From Bacillota bacterium (GTDB taxonomy: Bacteria; Bacillota_I; Bacilli_A; RFN20; CAG-826): a stretch of DNA of 25,762 nucleotides. Of this stretch, positions 15,073 to 21,780 are shown in pieces. How positions within the stretch are numbered: the stretch's first letter is position 1; each line of letters opens with the position of its first letter. The translations under genes and the position numbers were made by a program. The DNA is taken from the NCBI GenBank assembly GCA_016872075.1, contig VHBF01000001.1, positions 1 to 25,762 of the forward strand. Direction: 5' to 3'. The notes beneath the pieces were generated by a model. That model saw only the letters and a list, made by a program, of their open reading frames with translations. It was not told the DNA's origin and searched no databases.

Positions 15073-15129
15073 GTTTTTAATATATTGAGGATAGTTTGCT
15101 CTGCAAATGAAAAGCAAAGGAGATCCTTC

Positions 15130-15810
15130 ATGGCAAAAAAGATTTTAGTGGTTGAAGATGAAGCATCTTTAGCTAAAATATTAAAATTTGACCTTGAAAC
15201 TGCTGGATTCTTAGTAAAAACAGCTCTAAATGGGACAGAAGCTTATCGTTTAGTTCAAAAAGAGTCTTTTGATTGTTTAGTCATCGATTGGATGCTTCCT
15301 TCCATGAATGGGATTGAATTGATTAAAAAGTTGAGAGCAGAAAAGAATCGAGCTCTTTTTGTGATGCTAACAGCAAAAACTTCAGAATTTGATGCAATCG
15401 AAGGCCTGGGTTCAGGAGCAGATCTGTTCCTTAAAAAACCAATTTCCAATCGAGAATTAATCGCCCAAATCAAAGCATTATTGGGTCACTTTAAAGAAGA
15501 AAAATCAAATGACGATGATTTGTTAACTTTTGGCGACATTTCCCTTGATTTAAAGCAATATAAAGCCACGATCAAAGGCAATGTCATTGAATTAACCAAA
15601 ATGGAATTTGATTTACTCAAATTCTTCATTATTAACAAAGAACATGCCCTTTCAAGAGATGCGATTTTAAATTCGATTTGGGGTTTTAATTATGATGGAA
15701 CAACTCGAATCGTGGATGTTCACGTTTACAATTTAAAGAAAAAACTTGAGAATTCTGCTTGCTTCTTCAAACCAGTTCGTGGCGTAGGATATTCCTTACT
15801 TTTAAAGTAA
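15130..15810 (+). CDS. phoP: OmpR/PhoP-family response regulator
   Basis: ILVVEDE, VIDWMLP (phospho-acceptor Asp), MLTAK, GADLFLKKP, LTKMEFDLL, IWG, RIVDVHV, VRGVGY. Start at ATG 15130 with SD AAGGAG. Symbol assigned from the adjacent pst/phoU genes. Confidence 0.88.
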   Translation: MAKKILVVEDEASLAKILKFDLETAGFLVKTALNGTEAYRLVQKESFDCLVIDWMLPSMNGIELIKKLRAEKNRALFVMLTAKTSEFDAIEGLGSGADLFLKKPISNRELIAQIKALLGHFKEEKSNDDDLLTFGDISLDLKQYKATIKGNVIELTKMEFDLLKFFIINKEHALSRDAILNSIWGFNYDGTTRIVDVHVYNLKKKLENSACFFKPVRGVGYSLLLK

Positions 15811-15817
15811 AATAAGG

Positions 15818-17047
15818 ATGATGAAAAGCCCGCGACGTTTTTACCTGATTTATTTAATATTTGTCTTGTGCGTTTTGATTGGCATGGTTTGGTTTTTTTC
15901 CACCAACCCGTGGATTAGTACGATTTGGATTCTGTTGAATTTATTCTTATTAATCTATTTATTTCCCAAAATTTTAAAATTACCTAAAATCACAATAGAA
16001 GCCAACTCACTCATTGCCCCTAACAAATCAGACAAAATCAATTTATTAAGTAAAATCTTTCAACAACTCGATCAATATATTCTCATCATCCAAAGTGATG
16101 GCGTGATTTCTGAATTTACCCAACCCTGGATGGAGTTATTTTCGATTGAGGAAAACGCTTCGATTACAATGAAAGCATTAAGATTAGCACCTAAACTATG
16201 GTCCACGATTAACCAAGGATTGGCCACAGAAAAAGGCGCTCAATTTCAATGGGAACTATCCAACCAAACTTTTCAATCATCTTTAACCCCACTCTTCTTA
16301 GATCAAACATTTTATGGTGTGATGGTGACGGCAATTGATATCACAAAGATTAGTCAACTTGAACAAATTCAAAGTGATTTTTTAGCAGACATATCGCATG
16401 AAATTAAAACGCCTCTCGCGGCCATTTTAGGCGCTTCAGAAATTCTTAATCAATCGACGAGAAAATTAACCACTGAAGAAACTAAAGAATTTCAAACGAT
16501 GATTGCCAGTGAATCGTCTCGATTACAACGTTTGATTCATGAACTAACCGACTTATCTAAAATTGGCACTCATGGTTTTCAAACCCTAATTAAAACTAAG
16601 TTTTCGATTCTTGATTTGTTAACAGAAGTTAAACAAGTCTATCAGTTAGAGTTGGATAAAAAGGCACTTCAATTTAAGATAAAGATACCTAAAGAATTAA
16701 ACATTTTTGTTGATCGCGACAAGTTTTTTCTTATTTTTTCCAATTTACTTTCTAATGCAATTCGCTATACGGATAAGGGGGCGATTCAAGTATCAAGTGA
16801 AATTAAGAATCAAACTTTGATTCTTTATTTTGCTGATACTGGCAGAGGCATTGAACCTAAAAATCTAGCAAGAATTTTTGATCGTTTTTATCGTACAGAT
16901 GCTGCAAGAACGCGTGTCAGTGGTGGCAGTGGTCTGGGTCTAGCGATCACGAGGGGCATTGTTCAAGCCCATCAAGGCACCATCGAAGTTTCAAGTCAGT
17001 TAGGTAAGGGGACCACATTTACTTTAACAATCCCCCACTTAACCTAA
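15818..17047 (+). CDS. phoR: Sensor histidine kinase PhoR-like (2 TM with a very short loop, PAS-like, HisKA, HATPase)
   Basis: FLADISHEIKTPL, NLLSNAIRY, DTGRGI, IFDRFYR, GGSGLGLAI, GKGTTF. Confidence 0.88.
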   Translation: MMKSPRRFYLIYLIFVLCVLIGMVWFFSTNPWISTIWILLNLFLLIYLFPKILKLPKITIEANSLIAPNKSDKINLLSKIFQQLDQYILIIQSDGVISEFTQPWMELFSIEENASITMKALRLAPKLWSTINQGLATEKGAQFQWELSNQTFQSSLTPLFLDQTFYGVMVTAIDITKISQLEQIQSDFLADISHEIKTPLAAILGASEILNQSTRKLTTEETKEFQTMIASESSRLQRLIHELTDLSKIGTHGFQTLIKTKFSILDLLTEVKQVYQLELDKKALQFKIKIPKELNIFVDRDKFFLIFSNLLSNAIRYTDKGAIQVSSEIKNQTLILYFADTGRGIEPKNLARIFDRFYRTDAARTRVSGGSGLGLAITRGIVQAHQGTIEVSSQLGKGTTFTLTIPHLT

Positions 17048-17053
17048 CCCTGA

Positions 17054-17103
17054 TTAATTCTTTACGGTAACTTTATCTACTTAACAAATCCCTCCTTTAT
17101 ATT
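17054..17103 (+). promoter_or_regulatory. Pho-box-like repeats and -10 upstream of pstS
   Basis: TTTACG (17061), TTTATC (17072, 11-bp period) and TTAACA (17081), then TATATT (17098-17103); no consensus -35. Confidence 0.45.
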
Positions 17104-17134
17104 GAGAGCGTATGAATTCATAAGGAGGATATCT

Positions 17135-18163
17135 ATGAACATGCAATTAAAGAAAGGAACTTTGTTTGCCTCACTTGCAGTGATCTTAGCTGCGTGCGGT
17201 ACCACGGTTTCATCGTCTAGTGACAATTCTGTTGCTTCATCCGCCACATCTGTTGCGCCAGAGTTTACGACATCGAACAATATTGTTCTTTACACACGTG
17301 ATACAACTTCAGGAACCCGTGATGGTTTTATGGGTGGTATCGGATTTAGCACGGCTGCAAAAAATGATAGTTTATTAACGGATGGATTTGTTATCGCTGA
17401 TAACACAGCGATCTTAACTGCGATGAGCGGTTCCGATAAGTATGGTATTGGTTATGTCTCCTTATCTTCAGTTAACAACAACGTCAAAGCTTTGGATTTC
17501 AATAATGTTGAAGCAAGCGAAGACACAGTTTTAGATAACAGCTATGGATTGAAGAGACCATTCAACTGGATGTTAAGAGCAGACAACGATTTCCCTTCTG
17601 CTACCGTTGAAAACATTTCCAAAGCTTTCGTTGCCTTCATGGGAACGATTGAAGGTGGAGACACCATTGCTGGGGCAGGTGCAGTTGCTTTAAATGCCAC
17701 TCAACGTTGGGATGACATCAAAGCTAGTTATCCAGTTTGTAATCAAGATAATAGTGCTGTGACCGTTCGCTTTGGTGGTTCTGACTCGATTGAAAAAGTT
17801 GCGAAGGCCATCACTGCTTCTTTTAAACCTCGTTGTGGGAACTTTGTTGCCGAACACGAACACACAGGTTCTGGAGATGCGTATAAGAGAACGAACGATC
17901 CTGCAATCAAAGATACCGCGGTCGGTAAGGATGTTGGTTTTGCCTCAAGAAACTTCGCTGATGCTGAAAAGAAAGTTGGCGATGTTGCCTTACCATCAGC
18001 TCAATATGGTCAATTAGCTTGGGATGCCATCGTTGCCATTGTTCACAAAGACAACCCATTACTCAATGTCAATGGTGATATTTTAAAGAGAATGTATGAA
18101 AAAGCATCCGCCAATCCAATCCGTACTTGGGCAGAAGCTTTAGCAGCAGAAGCCGCGCTTTAA
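17135..18163 (+). CDS. pstS: Phosphate-binding lipoprotein PstS, circularly permuted
   Basis: SD AGGAGG before ATG 17135; lipobox LAAC; Ser-rich tether; motifs TRDTTSGTR, GIGYVSL, KRPF, GGSDS, TGSG, GFASR, AWDAIVAIVHKDNP. Confidence 0.9.
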   Translation: MNMQLKKGTLFASLAVILAACGTTVSSSSDNSVASSATSVAPEFTTSNNIVLYTRDTTSGTRDGFMGGIGFSTAAKNDSLLTDGFVIADNTAILTAMSGSDKYGIGYVSLSSVNNNVKALDFNNVEASEDTVLDNSYGLKRPFNWMLRADNDFPSATVENISKAFVAFMGTIEGGDTIAGAGAVALNATQRWDDIKASYPVCNQDNSAVTVRFGGSDSIEKVAKAITASFKPRCGNFVAEHEHTGSGDAYKRTNDPAIKDTAVGKDVGFASRNFADAEKKVGDVALPSAQYGQLAWDAIVAIVHKDNPLLNVNGDILKRMYEKASANPIRTWAEALAAEAAL

Positions 18164-18191
18164 TTCTAACCAAATCATAACAAATAAGACC

Positions 18192-18219
18192 TTATACCGA
18201 GGGAGACCCCTCGGTATAA
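18192..18219 (+). terminator. 12-bp perfect hairpin between pstS and pstC
   Basis: TTATACCGAGGG-agac-CCCTCGGTATAA. The 3' arm overlaps TATAAT (18215-18220), which lies 6 nt before the pstC ATG. Confidence 0.7.
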
Positions 18220-18226
18220 TTTATTT

Positions 18227-19162
18227 ATGACCATTAAAACGAATGTCACTAAAAAATGGATTGATCAATTGGTTGAAAAAATTCTTTTTTTTATGGCGTT
18301 ATTATCAGCCTCATTTATCGTCATGGTTGTCATCGTCATTATCGAAAGAGGGTTATCGCCTTTTTTTTCAGATAACGATGGTTTAGGTCAAGTTAACTTA
18401 TTAAGATTTTTAACTGGCATTGTTTATTTGGATGGCCCCACGTTTGCTTCTAATGCTTATGGCATTGGTTATTTGATAATCAGTACGCTTTATATTGCTT
18501 TACTGAGTTTATTGATTGCGATGCCCATCTCTATCTTTTCAGCACTATTTATTGCCAAGATTGCCCCTAAACCGTTAGGCAATACCTTAAGAACTGTAAC
18601 GGAAATTCTTGCCGCGATACCTTCGATTGTTTATGGGTTGTTTGGCGCGGGTGTCATCTTGGATTTGGTTTATAACTTATCTCTGATTGTTGGGGTTCAA
18701 TCCTCTGCAGGATTTTCAGTGTTATCCACGGTGATTGTTTTGGCAATTATGATTATTCCCACCATGACGGTCATTGCCGAAGTGGCAATTCGTGCGGTTC
18801 AAAAAGAATTAATCCATGGTTCATTAGCATTGGGTGCTACGCCTACGCAAACAAACTTTAAAGTCGTTTTGGCCTCAGCAAAATCGGGTATCTTTACAGC
18901 GGCAATCCTTGGAGTAGGCAGAGCCTTAGGTGAGGCAACGGCTGTTAGTTTAGTCGCTGGTTCTAGACGTTCGGGCATTTCATTTGCCTTATTTGAAACC
19001 ACAGCTACACTGACATCAACGATGTTACAAGGGATGAAAGAAACGGTTGGTTTAGATTACACGATTCGCTTTTCGATTGGATTAGTCTTAATGGTAATTA
19101 TTTTGCTCGTTAACTTTATTTTAAACTTCGTTAAATCAAAGGTTGGTCGAGTTCATGTCTAA
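18227..19162 (+). CDS. pstC: Phosphate ABC transporter permease PstC
   Basis: EILAAIPSIVYGLFG, MIIPT, GSLALGATPTQT, GVGRALGEATAV, TATLTS. Confidence 0.95.
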   Translation: MTIKTNVTKKWIDQLVEKILFFMALLSASFIVMVVIVIIERGLSPFFSDNDGLGQVNLLRFLTGIVYLDGPTFASNAYGIGYLIISTLYIALLSLLIAMPISIFSALFIAKIAPKPLGNTLRTVTEILAAIPSIVYGLFGAGVILDLVYNLSLIVGVQSSAGFSVLSTVIVLAIMIIPTMTVIAEVAIRAVQKELIHGSLALGATPTQTNFKVVLASAKSGIFTAAILGVGRALGEATAVSLVAGSRRSGISFALFETTATLTSTMLQGMKETVGLDYTIRFSIGLVLMVIILLVNFILNFVKSKVGRVHV

Positions 19163-20375
19163 ATTTAGTTTCCGATATGTCATCGATGCTTTATTACAAG
19201 GTATTACTTTTTTATTTTCATCGATTTCATTTTTGACCTTAGGCGCGATTCTAGTGTTTGTATTTAATCAAGGATGGTCATTAGTTAACATTGATTTGAT
19301 TCGCTATCCATACGAATCGACTACCATTTTGGGAGCACCCCTCGAAGATCAAAATGAATTTTGTTTATGTGAACCCAACATTACACTTGATCCTGAGGTT
19401 TTTTATTCAAATAAATGGGGTGTTGGTTTTTCACAAGGGCAAGATTTATTAGGCCAAGCGACAGTTCAACTAGCCTACATTCACCCCAATTCACCCATAA
19501 GTTCTTTAACAAATAAAGGAATTGAAGGGAATGAATTTGTCTTATTACCTGAATATTTAATTCAAAAAATTTCTTATAATGACCGTTCTACTTCATTGGC
19601 GAGACGCGGTGTTGAAAGAATGATTAATGAACTCGAATCCTCTAATTCAATTTATGAAATTGAAGTCATTACCAAAGGTGGTGGCATCGGCGGTTCGATT
19701 ATTACCACGCTATGGTTGATTGGTTTAACCTTAATCATTGCCATTCCAATTGGGGTTGGGGCTGCCTTATATTTGAATGAATACGCCAAACACTCTCAAT
19801 TCGCGAACGCAATTCGTTCGTTCATCGAAACGTTAACCGGGGTCCCTTCTATTATTTTTGGATTGCTAGGGGTGGCGATTTTTATTCCACTTACGGTTGC
19901 AACTACCAATGCCACTGGTGGTAATTTAATTTCTGGGGCGTTGACCCTTTCTGTCATTTTATTACCGATTGTGATTCGCACCACCGAAGAAAGTCTTAAA
20001 GTCGTGCCGATGGATTACCGTAACGCTTCATTAGCGTTGGGTGCGTCTCGAACTCAAACCACATTTAAAGTCGTGATTCCTAATGCCCTTCCTGGCATTT
20101 TAGCGGCAGTATTACTTGGGATTGGTCGAATTGTCGGCGAATCTGCGGCGTTGATCTTTGCCATCGGTTCGATTGTGAGGGATGAGATTACTTTAACGGA
20201 TAAATCCACTTCTTTGGCAGTGCATATTTATTCGATGATGACTGATGAACCTGCCAATATTGAACTATCTTCAACGATTGCCATTATCATCTTGGCAATT
20301 GTGTTAGTCCTTAACTTATTGATTAAATTCATTTCCAGCAAGATTATGAAAGGCAAACTCGGAGGAGTAATCTAA
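19155..20375 (+). CDS. pstA: Phosphate ABC transporter permease PstA with a ~125-aa extracytoplasmic insertion
   Basis: [70 protein letters not shown]; start at ATG 19155, overlapping the pstC stop. Confidence 0.93.
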
Positions 20376-21130
20376 TGAAAAAAGTATTTGATACCCAGAA
20401 CCTGTCTTTATTTTATGGGAAAAACCAAGCGTTAAAAAACATTAATCTTTCGATTTTTGAAAAAAGCGTGACCGCACTTATCGGTCCTTCTGGATGTGGA
20501 AAATCCACATTTTTAAGAACGTTAAATCGGATGAATGATTTGATACCTGATGTTAGCATCCAAGGTGGAGTTTGGTTTGGTGATATTTCAATTTATGATC
20601 AAAAGACAGACGTCATTGATATTCGCAAGCGTATCGGCATGGTGTTTCAAAAACCCAATCCATTCCCCATGAGTATTTATGACAATGTCGCGTATGGCCC
20701 AAGGTGCCAACGAAATTATTCTAAAAAAGAAATGGATGCACTCGTAAAAGAGGCATTGGTAAAGTCCGCTTTATACGAAGAAGTGAAGGATCGATTACAG
20801 CGTTCAGCGCTTGAATTATCAGGTGGTCAACAACAAAGACTATGTATCGCACGAGCATTAGCTATGAATCCCGAAGTGTTGTTAATGGATGAACCTACCT
20901 CAGCGCTCGATCCAATTGCCACTGCCAAAATTGAAGAGTTGATTGTCGAATTAAAGAAAAACTATACTATAGTAATCGTAACCCATTCCATGCAACAAGC
21001 CGCCCGTATTTCTGATCAAACCGCCTTCTTCTTACTTGGTGACCTTATTGAAGTAGAAGAAACAAAAACATTCTTCGCAACACCGAAAGATCCCCGTTCA
21101 GAAAGTTATATTACCGGAAGGTTTGGATAG
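20375..21130 (+). CDS. pstB: Phosphate ABC transporter ATP-binding protein
   Basis: [67 protein letters not shown]. Confidence 0.97.
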
Positions 21131-21138
21131 GAGTAAAT

Positions 21139-21780
21139 ATGACCACTTTAATTGAAACAGAAATTAGAGAAATAGAAAAAAATCTCAAAGAGATGATTGA
21201 TTTAGTGTTGTCGATGCACCGCGACGCTAAGAAAGCGTTAGAGACCAATGATACAAAATTAGCCATTCAAATTATTAAACGTGATGAGCAAGTTAATAAT
21301 CTAGACGAATTGATCAATGAATCAGTGCTTTCATTTTTAGCAACGCAAGCCCCTGTTGCGAGGGATTTACGTTCTGCTATCGCGATGATTCGGGTTGCCA
21401 ACGATGTGGAGCGCATTGGGGATTATGCGAAAACAATCTCTGAATTTATTATTTTAACCAAGCCACTCTATGATCCATTCAAGTTATATATCAATGATAT
21501 GTTTGATGATTTTATGAAAATGTTTCAAATGGCGACGAGTTTATTTTTTAAACCCGTTTTGGAAGAATCTTATACCATTGCCGCCCAAGATCAATTTATT
21601 GACGCCAAACTCAAAAAAGCGTTTCATGAAATTCCTAAAGTGGTCAATACTACCAACGTCATGAGTTTATTAGATACCTTTAACATCATTCGTACCCTCG
21701 AGAGAGCGGGAGATCATACGAAAAATATTTGTGAAGCCGTCATCTTTAAATTAAAAGGGAAAAAAATCGATTTAGGTTAA
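21139..21780 (+). CDS. phoU: Phosphate signalling protein PhoU
   Basis: QAPVARDLR, DVERIGDYA, LERAGDHTKNICE; two PhoU repeats; SD AGGAG. Confidence 0.95.
   Translation: MTTLIETEIREIEKNLKEMIDLVLSMHRDAKKALETNDTKLAIQIIKRDEQVNNLDELINESVLSFLATQAPVARDLRSAIAMIRVANDVERIGDYAKTISEFIILTKPLYDPFKLYINDMFDDFMKMFQMATSLFFKPVLEESYTIAAQDQFIDAKLKKAFHEIPKVVNTTNVMSLLDTFNIIRTLERAGDHTKNICEAVIFKLKGKKIDLG

Follow-up and report, generated by a model that had tools for sequence, protein, structure and literature searches.

A Predicted PDZ-Fold Domain in the P1 Loop of the Phosphate Permease PstA of Bacilli

The phosphate permease PstA of a small-genome Bacillota bacterium (hereafter the source) carried an insert of about 120 residues in its P1 loop (aa 52-174, PYESTT...EVITK; 19308..19676, + strand), and structure prediction indicated that this insert is PDZ-like by fold (AF2 domain model, VIA-align, Foldseek and ESM Atlas). 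The window, which is the whole stretch of DNA analysed, comprised 25,762 nt (GCA_016872075.1, contig VHBF01000001.1, positions 1-25,762, forward strand). The transporter is a known one with a novel domain architecture; the insert is real, widespread and well placed, and its function is putative.

Operon Organization and Topology of PstA

PstSCAB is the main bacterial high-affinity phosphate importer and feeds the Pho regulon. Open reading frames and family profiles revealed a complete phosphate-uptake operon on the + strand, in the order pstS-pstC-pstA-pstB-phoU. Upstream of pstS lay a response regulator and a histidine kinase (15085-17047, + strand), a two-component pair that was phoP/phoR-like by position alone. 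The gene pstS (17102..18163, + strand; likely true start at the Met of MNMQLKK) encoded a lipoprotein phosphate-binding protein that was circularly permuted relative to TIGR02136. The permease partner encoded by pstC (18227..19162, + strand) was of ordinary length, and its match to TIGR02138 (221.8 bits; residues 14-305 to profile positions 2-294) spanned the protein with no insert comparable to that of PstA. The gene pstA (19155..20375, + strand) overlapped the 3' end of pstC by 8 nt at its 5' end and encoded a phosphate ABC transporter permease of 406 aa; the ATG at 19155 corresponded to the start Met of PstA homologues. It was followed by pstB (20375-21130, + strand) and phoU (21139-21780, + strand).

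PstA scored over the equivalog cut-off of TIGR00974 (220.8 vs 193.45 bits; matched residues 173-397, the first of them aligned to profile position 47) and matched Pfam BPD_transp_1 within the same residues (PF00528; E 1.4e-22; domain 197-397), which together with the pstSCAB-phoU context identified it as a phosphate permease. The first transmembrane helix, TM1, was placed at aa ~17-43 with the N-terminus inside (19203..19283, + strand) from a helix at residues 2-43 of the full-length AF2 model and from homology to Escherichia coli PstA. The conserved start of TM2, GGGIGGS (19677..19697, + strand), aligned by phmmer to T74-E-G-G-G of E. coli PstA (PDB 9k3s_A), residues 74-292 of which aligned to residues 173-396 of the source PstA. 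Both the profiles and this alignment gave a net insertion of approximately 100-125 residues between TM1 and GGGIGGS. An initial annotation, made by eye, had described a 406-aa PstA with about 125 residues between TM1 and GGGIGGSII, as translation and profile coverage bore out, and had listed PDZ-like motifs in order along the insert; the CxC at C70/C72, KWGVGF from nt 19413 (K87) and YEIEVIT were all found, in the order given there. In single-sequence searches no Pfam, NCBIfam or PDB sequence model matched the insert residues.

The first PstSCAB structures, those of E. coli, are dated February 2026 (PMC12976172). In them PstA and PstC have six TM helices each, TM1 of PstA is followed by a periplasmic P1 loop, the P1 loops of both permeases extend into the cleft between the lobes of PstS, and Pro73 in P1 of PstA touches the PstS C-lobe (PMC12976172). 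Residue T173 of the source PstA, the first beyond the last strand of the predicted PDZ fold, aligned to Thr74 of E. coli PstA (phmmer to 9k3s_A), which is next after the PstS-contacting Pro73. Because Pro73 touches PstS and T173 aligns to Thr74, the domain would be extracytoplasmic by homology, with its base at the PstS interface. The outside topology inferred in this way agrees with the initial annotation, and homology to the E. coli P1 loop spoke against a cytoplasmic insert, the placement named there as evidence to the contrary. In the source PstA a folded domain would thus occupy P1, an extracytoplasmic loop on the docking side of the permease (T173/Thr74).

Predicted Fold and Relationship to PDZ Families

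The domain-only AF2 model, built from 42 diverse inserts, had a pLDDT of 91.1 and a pTM of 0.83 and comprised eight strands and one helix. In the full-length PstA model (33 sequences) mean pLDDT was 74.8, and the insert ranged between approximately 70 and 88. Strands were predicted at approximately residues 57-62, 83-85, 90-96, 102-109, 117-120, 126-129, 135-141 and 166-172, and the helix at 153-162; the termini of the insert adjoined each other. The predicted structure had the elements of a PDZ fold, namely a 5-6 strand beta-sandwich with a long alphaB helix beside beta2.

Among 48,161 PDB representative chains searched with VIA-align, independently of Foldseek, the best 50 entries were PDZ domains without exception (Z 9.2-7.6; rmsd mostly 2.2-3.0 A over ~82-90 residues), and the matches extended over model residues 10-131 and covered each PDZ almost in full. 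The best 50 Foldseek entries were nearly all PDZ domains (best E 6.5e-3; probability ~1.0; TM by target 0.5-0.65). Structural alignments were sequential and covered metazoan-type PDZ domains end to end, whereas HtrA-type bacterial PDZ models from the ESM Atlas aligned from residue 34 onward only (TM 0.46-0.48); the strand order of the model is therefore that of a canonical, non-permuted PDZ. A fold search of the ESM Atlas returned a Bacillota PstA cluster of 374 aa, with BPD_transp_1 on 100% and PF00595 PDZ on 40% of its members, which superposed on the insert model with a TM of 0.70 over 112 residues. A feature search of the ESM Atlas gave only sub-0.9 matches, to unnamed clusters.

The insert shared with canonical metazoan-type PDZ domains the fold and strand order (~82-90 residues), the X-Phi-G-Phi loop, the S-P after beta3 and the single long alphaB. 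It departed from them in a beta1-beta2 loop of ~25 residues with the CxC, and in a short alphaA that was not predicted helical by AF2. The same two features, and the lack of a Pfam match, set it apart from the PDZ clan (PF00595, PF13180, PF17820), as did its place inside a polytopic membrane protein and, by homology, outside the cell; its groove is a candidate ligand-binding site.

Sequence comparison of the source-type inserts with PDZ families was negative. Neither the source insert nor any of the 42 aligned inserts, searched individually, matched a Pfam PDZ family at E <= 1, the profile of the 42 inserts matched nothing in Pfam, NCBIfam or PDB sequences, and hhalign of the 42 source-type inserts against a true PDZ_2 domain alignment was not significant; the source insert thus lay outside formal membership of the PDZ profiles PF00595, PF13180 and PF17820. 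Inserts of the Turicibacter type were homologous to the source type (hhalign 99.2%, E 2e-19) and had the consensus GxGLTLE ... SPAR ... RRGQVLEGIN ... FTLRVRQ. Sub-threshold Pfam matches of Turicibacter-type inserts were to PDZ_2 in 3 members, PDZ_6 in 2 and PDZ in 1 (E 0.0086-0.19), and PDZ was the sole family that recurred. The Turicibacter-type profile aligned to the true PDZ_2 alignment of domains from related genomes (hhalign P 3.9e-4) in the expected register, through the GLGF loop, the SPA motif, the GD-I-x-x-IN strand and the last strand. The insert is probably homologous to PDZ, as judged from structure prediction together with this transitive link; the initial proposal that it was PDZ-like held at the level of the predicted fold (AF2 pLDDT 91.1, VIA-align, Foldseek and the Atlas cluster with PF00595).

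Other long PstA proteins, with DUF3333 (PF11812), also have extra residues after TM1. As the identity of the insert DUF3333 was rejected, with no PF11812 match at E <= 1 for PstA or for the insert; one relative had a weak match (E 0.075), confined to the TM1 region.

Distribution and Conservation of the Insert

When a word-indexed search was scored on residues 40-180 alone, 86 PstA clusters of ~400-414 aa proved to carry the insert, at insert identities down to 38%. Of 400 genomes sampled from the same class, 117 had a match to the insert profile, and these represented 17 of 30 families; the insert-bearing open frames were mostly 390-430 aa, with a minority of longer ones up to ~550 aa. Retention in open frames across these clusters and genomes argues against chance or an assembly artefact, and bears out the earlier expectation that similar long PstA proteins exist in related Firmicutes. 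An exhaustive phmmer search of 1.84 billion representatives with the insert returned PstA proteins or PstA fragments only, apart from a surface-type protein (P0097, 1672 aa) whose six short local matches were rejected as chance resemblance (profile comparison probability 1.9%).

Exact look-ups named Turicibacter sanguinis, Erysipelothrix larvae, Merdibacter massiliensis and Candidatus Caccosoma as carriers; Peloplasma aerotolerans and Acholeplasmataceae MAGs were further ones, and all were annotated simply as PstA. The closest relatives of the source were uncultured MAGs labelled Bacilli or Bacillota. The architecture was common to many Erysipelotrichales, Turicibacter, Acholeplasma-like bacteria and related small-genome Bacilli. 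In some genomes a second PstA of ~535-555 aa had the domain duplicated in tandem, which fits an autonomous module; a homologue search for longer proteins with the insert alignment added only these double-domain forms of PstA.

Over the 42 diverse inserts, conservation was highest for S85 and S113 (100% each), G89 (98%), P114 (95%) and Y108 (88%), followed by G152 and A153 (83% each), W88 (81%) and L160 (76%). The best-kept residues were those at the binding loop, at the S-P turn after beta3 and at the start of alphaB, which are the walls of the canonical pocket. The binding loop, of the X-Phi-G-Phi (GLGF) type that receives the carboxylate in PDZ domains, was K87-W88-G89-V90 (19413..19424, + strand) at the start of beta2, and fell in hhalign register with the Gly-Leu of PDZ_2 through the iGL of the Turicibacter type. 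Only one glycine was nearly invariant, G89, and it lies in the GLGF-like loop KWGVGF picked out by the initial annotation. Residues G152-A/V153 and helix alphaB (aa 152-162; 19608..19640, + strand), helical in both AF2 models, corresponded to the second wall of a canonical PDZ groove. Conservation of the groove may be structural rather than functional.

The CxC, C70-L-C72 (19362..19370, + strand), lay where the beta1-beta2 loop is extended by ~25 residues, and conservation within the domain was lowest there. It was found in the source clade and in many Acholeplasma-like members, and in several subfamilies both Cys were replaced jointly. The CxC (FCLCEP) reported ahead of KWGVGF was thus present but not conserved family-wide, and it was rejected as a defining feature.

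Retention across many families also bears on whether the domain has a specific ligand at all. It might be a tolerated embellishment of P1, acting as a spacer or as a shield for the mouth of the translocation pathway in wall-less or thin-walled cells. Insert identity to the source in distant loci was 16-30% vs 36-55% for the whole PstA, so that the insert evolves much faster than the membrane part, and both the CxC loop and domain length varied, as such an embellishment would allow. Against this stand the many families that keep the domain, the invariance of S85 and S113 and near-invariance of G89 and P114, the tandem duplication in some paralogues, and a co-fold with PstS above all controls (below), which leave a mere embellishment very improbable.

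A ligand other than PstS was also considered. The PDZ would then bind the C-terminus or a beta-hairpin of a surface or secreted protein as a scaffold, or unfolded envelope peptides as a sensor, and would give phosphate uptake or Pho signalling a second input. The bacterial envelope PDZ proteins DegS, RseP and Tsp have such ligand-binding or sensing roles and provide a precedent, with which the conserved groove residues agree. A search of 13 genomes of the source genus yielded no classical PF13180 PDZ, so that the insert could be their only PDZ-type module, although this is weak evidence because the genomes were 63-93% complete. This reading is nevertheless doubtful: no candidate ligand gene was linked to the operon in the source stretch or in the 20 loci inspected, the domain was found in PstA only, and its insertion point is exactly at the PstS interface.

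Permutation of PstS and the C-Terminal Tail

Residues 58-184 of PstS corresponded to TIGR02136 positions 161-281, and residues 219-348 to PBP_like_2 positions 8-128, coordinates that confirmed the permutation noticed in the initial annotation. In 20 diverse insert-bearing operons PstS was colinear with the permuted source form in 17; the opposite order occurred in the other three (G400 and G309, from the source family, and G136). A PstS profile search of the 400 genomes, cross-tabulated by hand, gave 108 genomes with both the insert and a permuted PstS. Five combined the insert with a PstS of canonical order (G136, G186, G389, G309 and G400), G186 and G389 having a single colinear TIGR02136 match. 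Four combined a permuted PstS (by TIGR02136 coordinates) with a plain short-loop PstA (G260, G261, G303 and G356; loops ...HYTSENVS...). Most other apparent exceptions, besides G137 and G350, were contig ends or divergent Turicibacter-type inserts missed by the profile. Strict co-occurrence was rejected on these exceptions in both directions: the insert and the permutation of PstS are strongly associated yet separable both ways. Since kin are not independent, the association may mark one operon lineage.

The PstS of the source ended in the tail AEALAAEAAL (18131..18160, + strand), an extension particular to the source clade; its final AAL was kept in seven close relatives (L034-L040), and the tail was absent from other permuted PstS. 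Outside the source clade, permuted PstS proteins stopped shortly past a conserved W-x-(D/E)-(L/V/I), and their terminal residue was E, D, K, G, N, T, A or M; these tails were mostly charged at the end and had no conserved hydrophobic end. PDZ grooves usually take a hydrophobic C-terminal end.

These observations bear on the proposal of a tail tether, in which the groove would take up the free C-terminus of the permuted PstS and thereby fasten PstS to the permease. Of the proteins encoded by the operon, PstS alone has an extracytoplasmic C-terminus, because the termini of PstC and PstA are inside and PstB and PhoU are cytoplasmic. The AAL end of the source-clade tail is Phi-x-Phi-like, the residues of the canonical pocket are the best conserved, and the insert and a permuted PstS coincide in the 108 genomes. 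As a tether it is nonetheless decidedly improbable: tails outside the source clade lack a conserved hydrophobic end, the insert persists with canonical PstS proteins that have other termini (five genomes), a permuted PstS occurs with a plain PstA (four genomes), and the association may stem from common ancestry of a single operon type. The initial suggestion that the new C-terminus (...ALAAEAAL) is the PDZ ligand was consequently not supported as a general mechanism, given the unconserved, mostly charged tails and the exceptions in both directions. Binding of the AAL tail in the groove is possible as a matter local to the source clade.

Predicted Contact with PstS and Proposed Role

The domain, entered as the alignment of 42 inserts, was co-folded with mature PstS and gave an ipSAE of 0.48 (runs 0.48, 0.60 and 0.47) vs 0.00 for the best control; the runs shared at least 84% of contacts, and partner pLDDT was at least 92. 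Of 80 solved complexes 58 attained the co-fold mark, as did 2 of 110 mismatched pairs; because only 7 of those 80 and both of the mismatches that passed had a score of 0.60 or less, the co-fold lends weak support. To our knowledge there is no solved PDZ-PstS complex, so that a pass from model memory is unlikely. The insertion point was already at the PstS interface, which made the prior reasonable, and the co-fold was for that reason read as modest support for contact. A direct contact between the domain and PstS is weakly suggested by these models.

Because its two ends adjoin, the PDZ-fold domain of ~120 residues spliced into P1 would protrude as a knob from the outside of the PstCA membrane unit. 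There it may serve the lipid-anchored PstS as an additional platform for docking or retention, enlarging or stabilising the interface between PstS and the permease in bacteria without a periplasm. Such a platform at the outer PstCA face is the most likely role, and is favoured by a little over an even chance. PstA without the insert works with a canonical PstS in E. coli and with a permuted one in the four genomes with short loops; since a plain PstA serves both PstS orders, the domain would not be needed for PstS docking as such.

A stronger form of the contact was judged unlikely. In it the groove clamps a strand or the tail of PstS (in the source clade the AAL tail), and PstS becomes a permanently tethered subunit. 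If so, the clamp would link binding protein and ABC importer in an undescribed manner, and its evolution may have gone hand in hand with the repeated circular permutation of PstS.

Comparison with Known Systems

E. coli PstSCAB (PDB 9k3s, 9k3x and 9k3y; PMC12976172) belongs to the same transporter family and to the same pstS-pstC-pstA-pstB-phoU operon type. The PstA core was shared (source residues 173-396 to E. coli 74-292), and in the E. coli complex P1 reaches into the docked PstS. The two differed in that E. coli PstA has a short stretch before Thr74 with no folded domain, where the source PstA has the predicted PDZ-fold domain of ~120 residues, and in that the source PstS is a circularly permuted lipoprotein, unlike its E. 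coli counterpart.

The P2 loop of MalF in MalFGK2 is a large folded extracytoplasmic domain that caps the maltose-binding protein; its fold is Ig-like, and it is inserted between TM3 and TM4. The likeness to the source PstA is that of a folded domain in an ABC importer permease loop at the docking face, a functional analogy for a docking role. MalF P2 is not a PDZ and is not in P1, and it has no sequence or fold relation to the source insert.

The literature searched contained no description of a PDZ domain in PstA or another ABC importer permease, and no experiment on an insert-bearing PstA. A branch of Bacilli that includes the gut genera Turicibacter and Erysipelothrix and many uncultured lineages with small genomes would have a protein-interaction domain in the PstS-touching loop. 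Should the domain dock or tether PstS, this would be a new way to keep a binding protein at its transporter without a periplasm, and PstA would also be a rare instance of a polytopic membrane protein with a PDZ fold built into it.

The PstA of the Atlas cluster (374 aa) and those of the Turicibacter type (381-389 aa) were annotated as PstA only, and no functional study of them was found in the literature searched. They had the same TM1-PDZ-TM2..6 architecture as the source PstA, and homologous inserts. Their inserts were shorter, were without the CxC loop and were closer to classical PDZ (GxGLTLE, SPAR, RRGQVLEGIN). The domain is outside the current Pfam and NCBIfam annotation of these PstA proteins and could justify a new domain model. 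PF00595 had been assigned automatically to some related PstA, and the architecture was in that sense latent in databases.

Affinities of the operon

The pst operon was compared over window positions 17102-20375 with genomes of the window's own family (G169, G274, G309 and G400) and with families f14, f17, f20 and f21 of the genome sample. The PDZ-like insert of the window PstA matched other families far more strongly, with E ~1e-50, against 1e-13 to 1e-18 for most own-family members. Likewise, the window PstS matched other families with E ~1e-125 and most own-family members with 1e-47 to 1e-104, and of the 40 own-family genomes no more than 8 gave a match to window-type PstS. The operon could have been acquired horizontally, or this family mismatch could stem from a binning or classification issue.

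Variation in PstS

PstS was circularly permuted in most operons of the insert-bearing set, including the window (pstS, 17102-18163). Two full PstS copies were fused in one open reading frame of 593-678 aa in 4 genomes (genome:contig:positions G042:C5:4211-5929, G277:C1:1825454-1827142, G228:C8:20474-22204 and G291:C5:40000-41772). Genomes G136, G186 and G389 encoded PstS in canonical order, in the same genera, yet very similar to the permuted profile. Loci L028, L051 and L052 were also among the permutation, fusion and canonical-order cases. The pattern looks like permutation through duplication plus truncation with intermediate stages visible, a process possibly running in both directions.

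In the window's clade, PstS carried a C-terminal extension of 7-10 residues (AEALAAEAAL, window 18131-18160), kept in 7 close relatives (PstS identity 74-94%) and absent from permuted PstS outside that clade.

PDZ domains and variants of PstA

With a single PDZ model, classical PDZ_2 (PF13180) was found in none of 13 genomes of the window's genus (G000, G401-G412; completeness 63-93%); in other families of the order, most genomes had 1-5.

PstA paralogues of 535-554 aa (e.g., proteins P0098 and P0105) carried a tandem pair of PDZ-like domains in the P1 loop (G306:C52:26915-27274, G137:C11:11690-12061, G250:C11:12668-13036, G383:C31:15292-15585 and G015:C8:16843-17133), and genomes with this form often also encoded a single-domain PstA. 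In L051 (G186:C1, 2367-3764), the P1 insert of a 466-aa PstA was enlarged by about 50 residues past the PDZ-like core; PstS of that operon was in canonical order.

The window pstC and pstA overlapped by 8 nt, from the first base of the pstA ATG (19155) to the last base of the pstC stop codon (19162), an arrangement that suggests translational coupling. An apparent fusion of PstC with a plain PstA, one that lacks the insert, occupied a single 610-aa open frame in L047 (G303:C13, 1345-3174), adjoining a permuted PstS.
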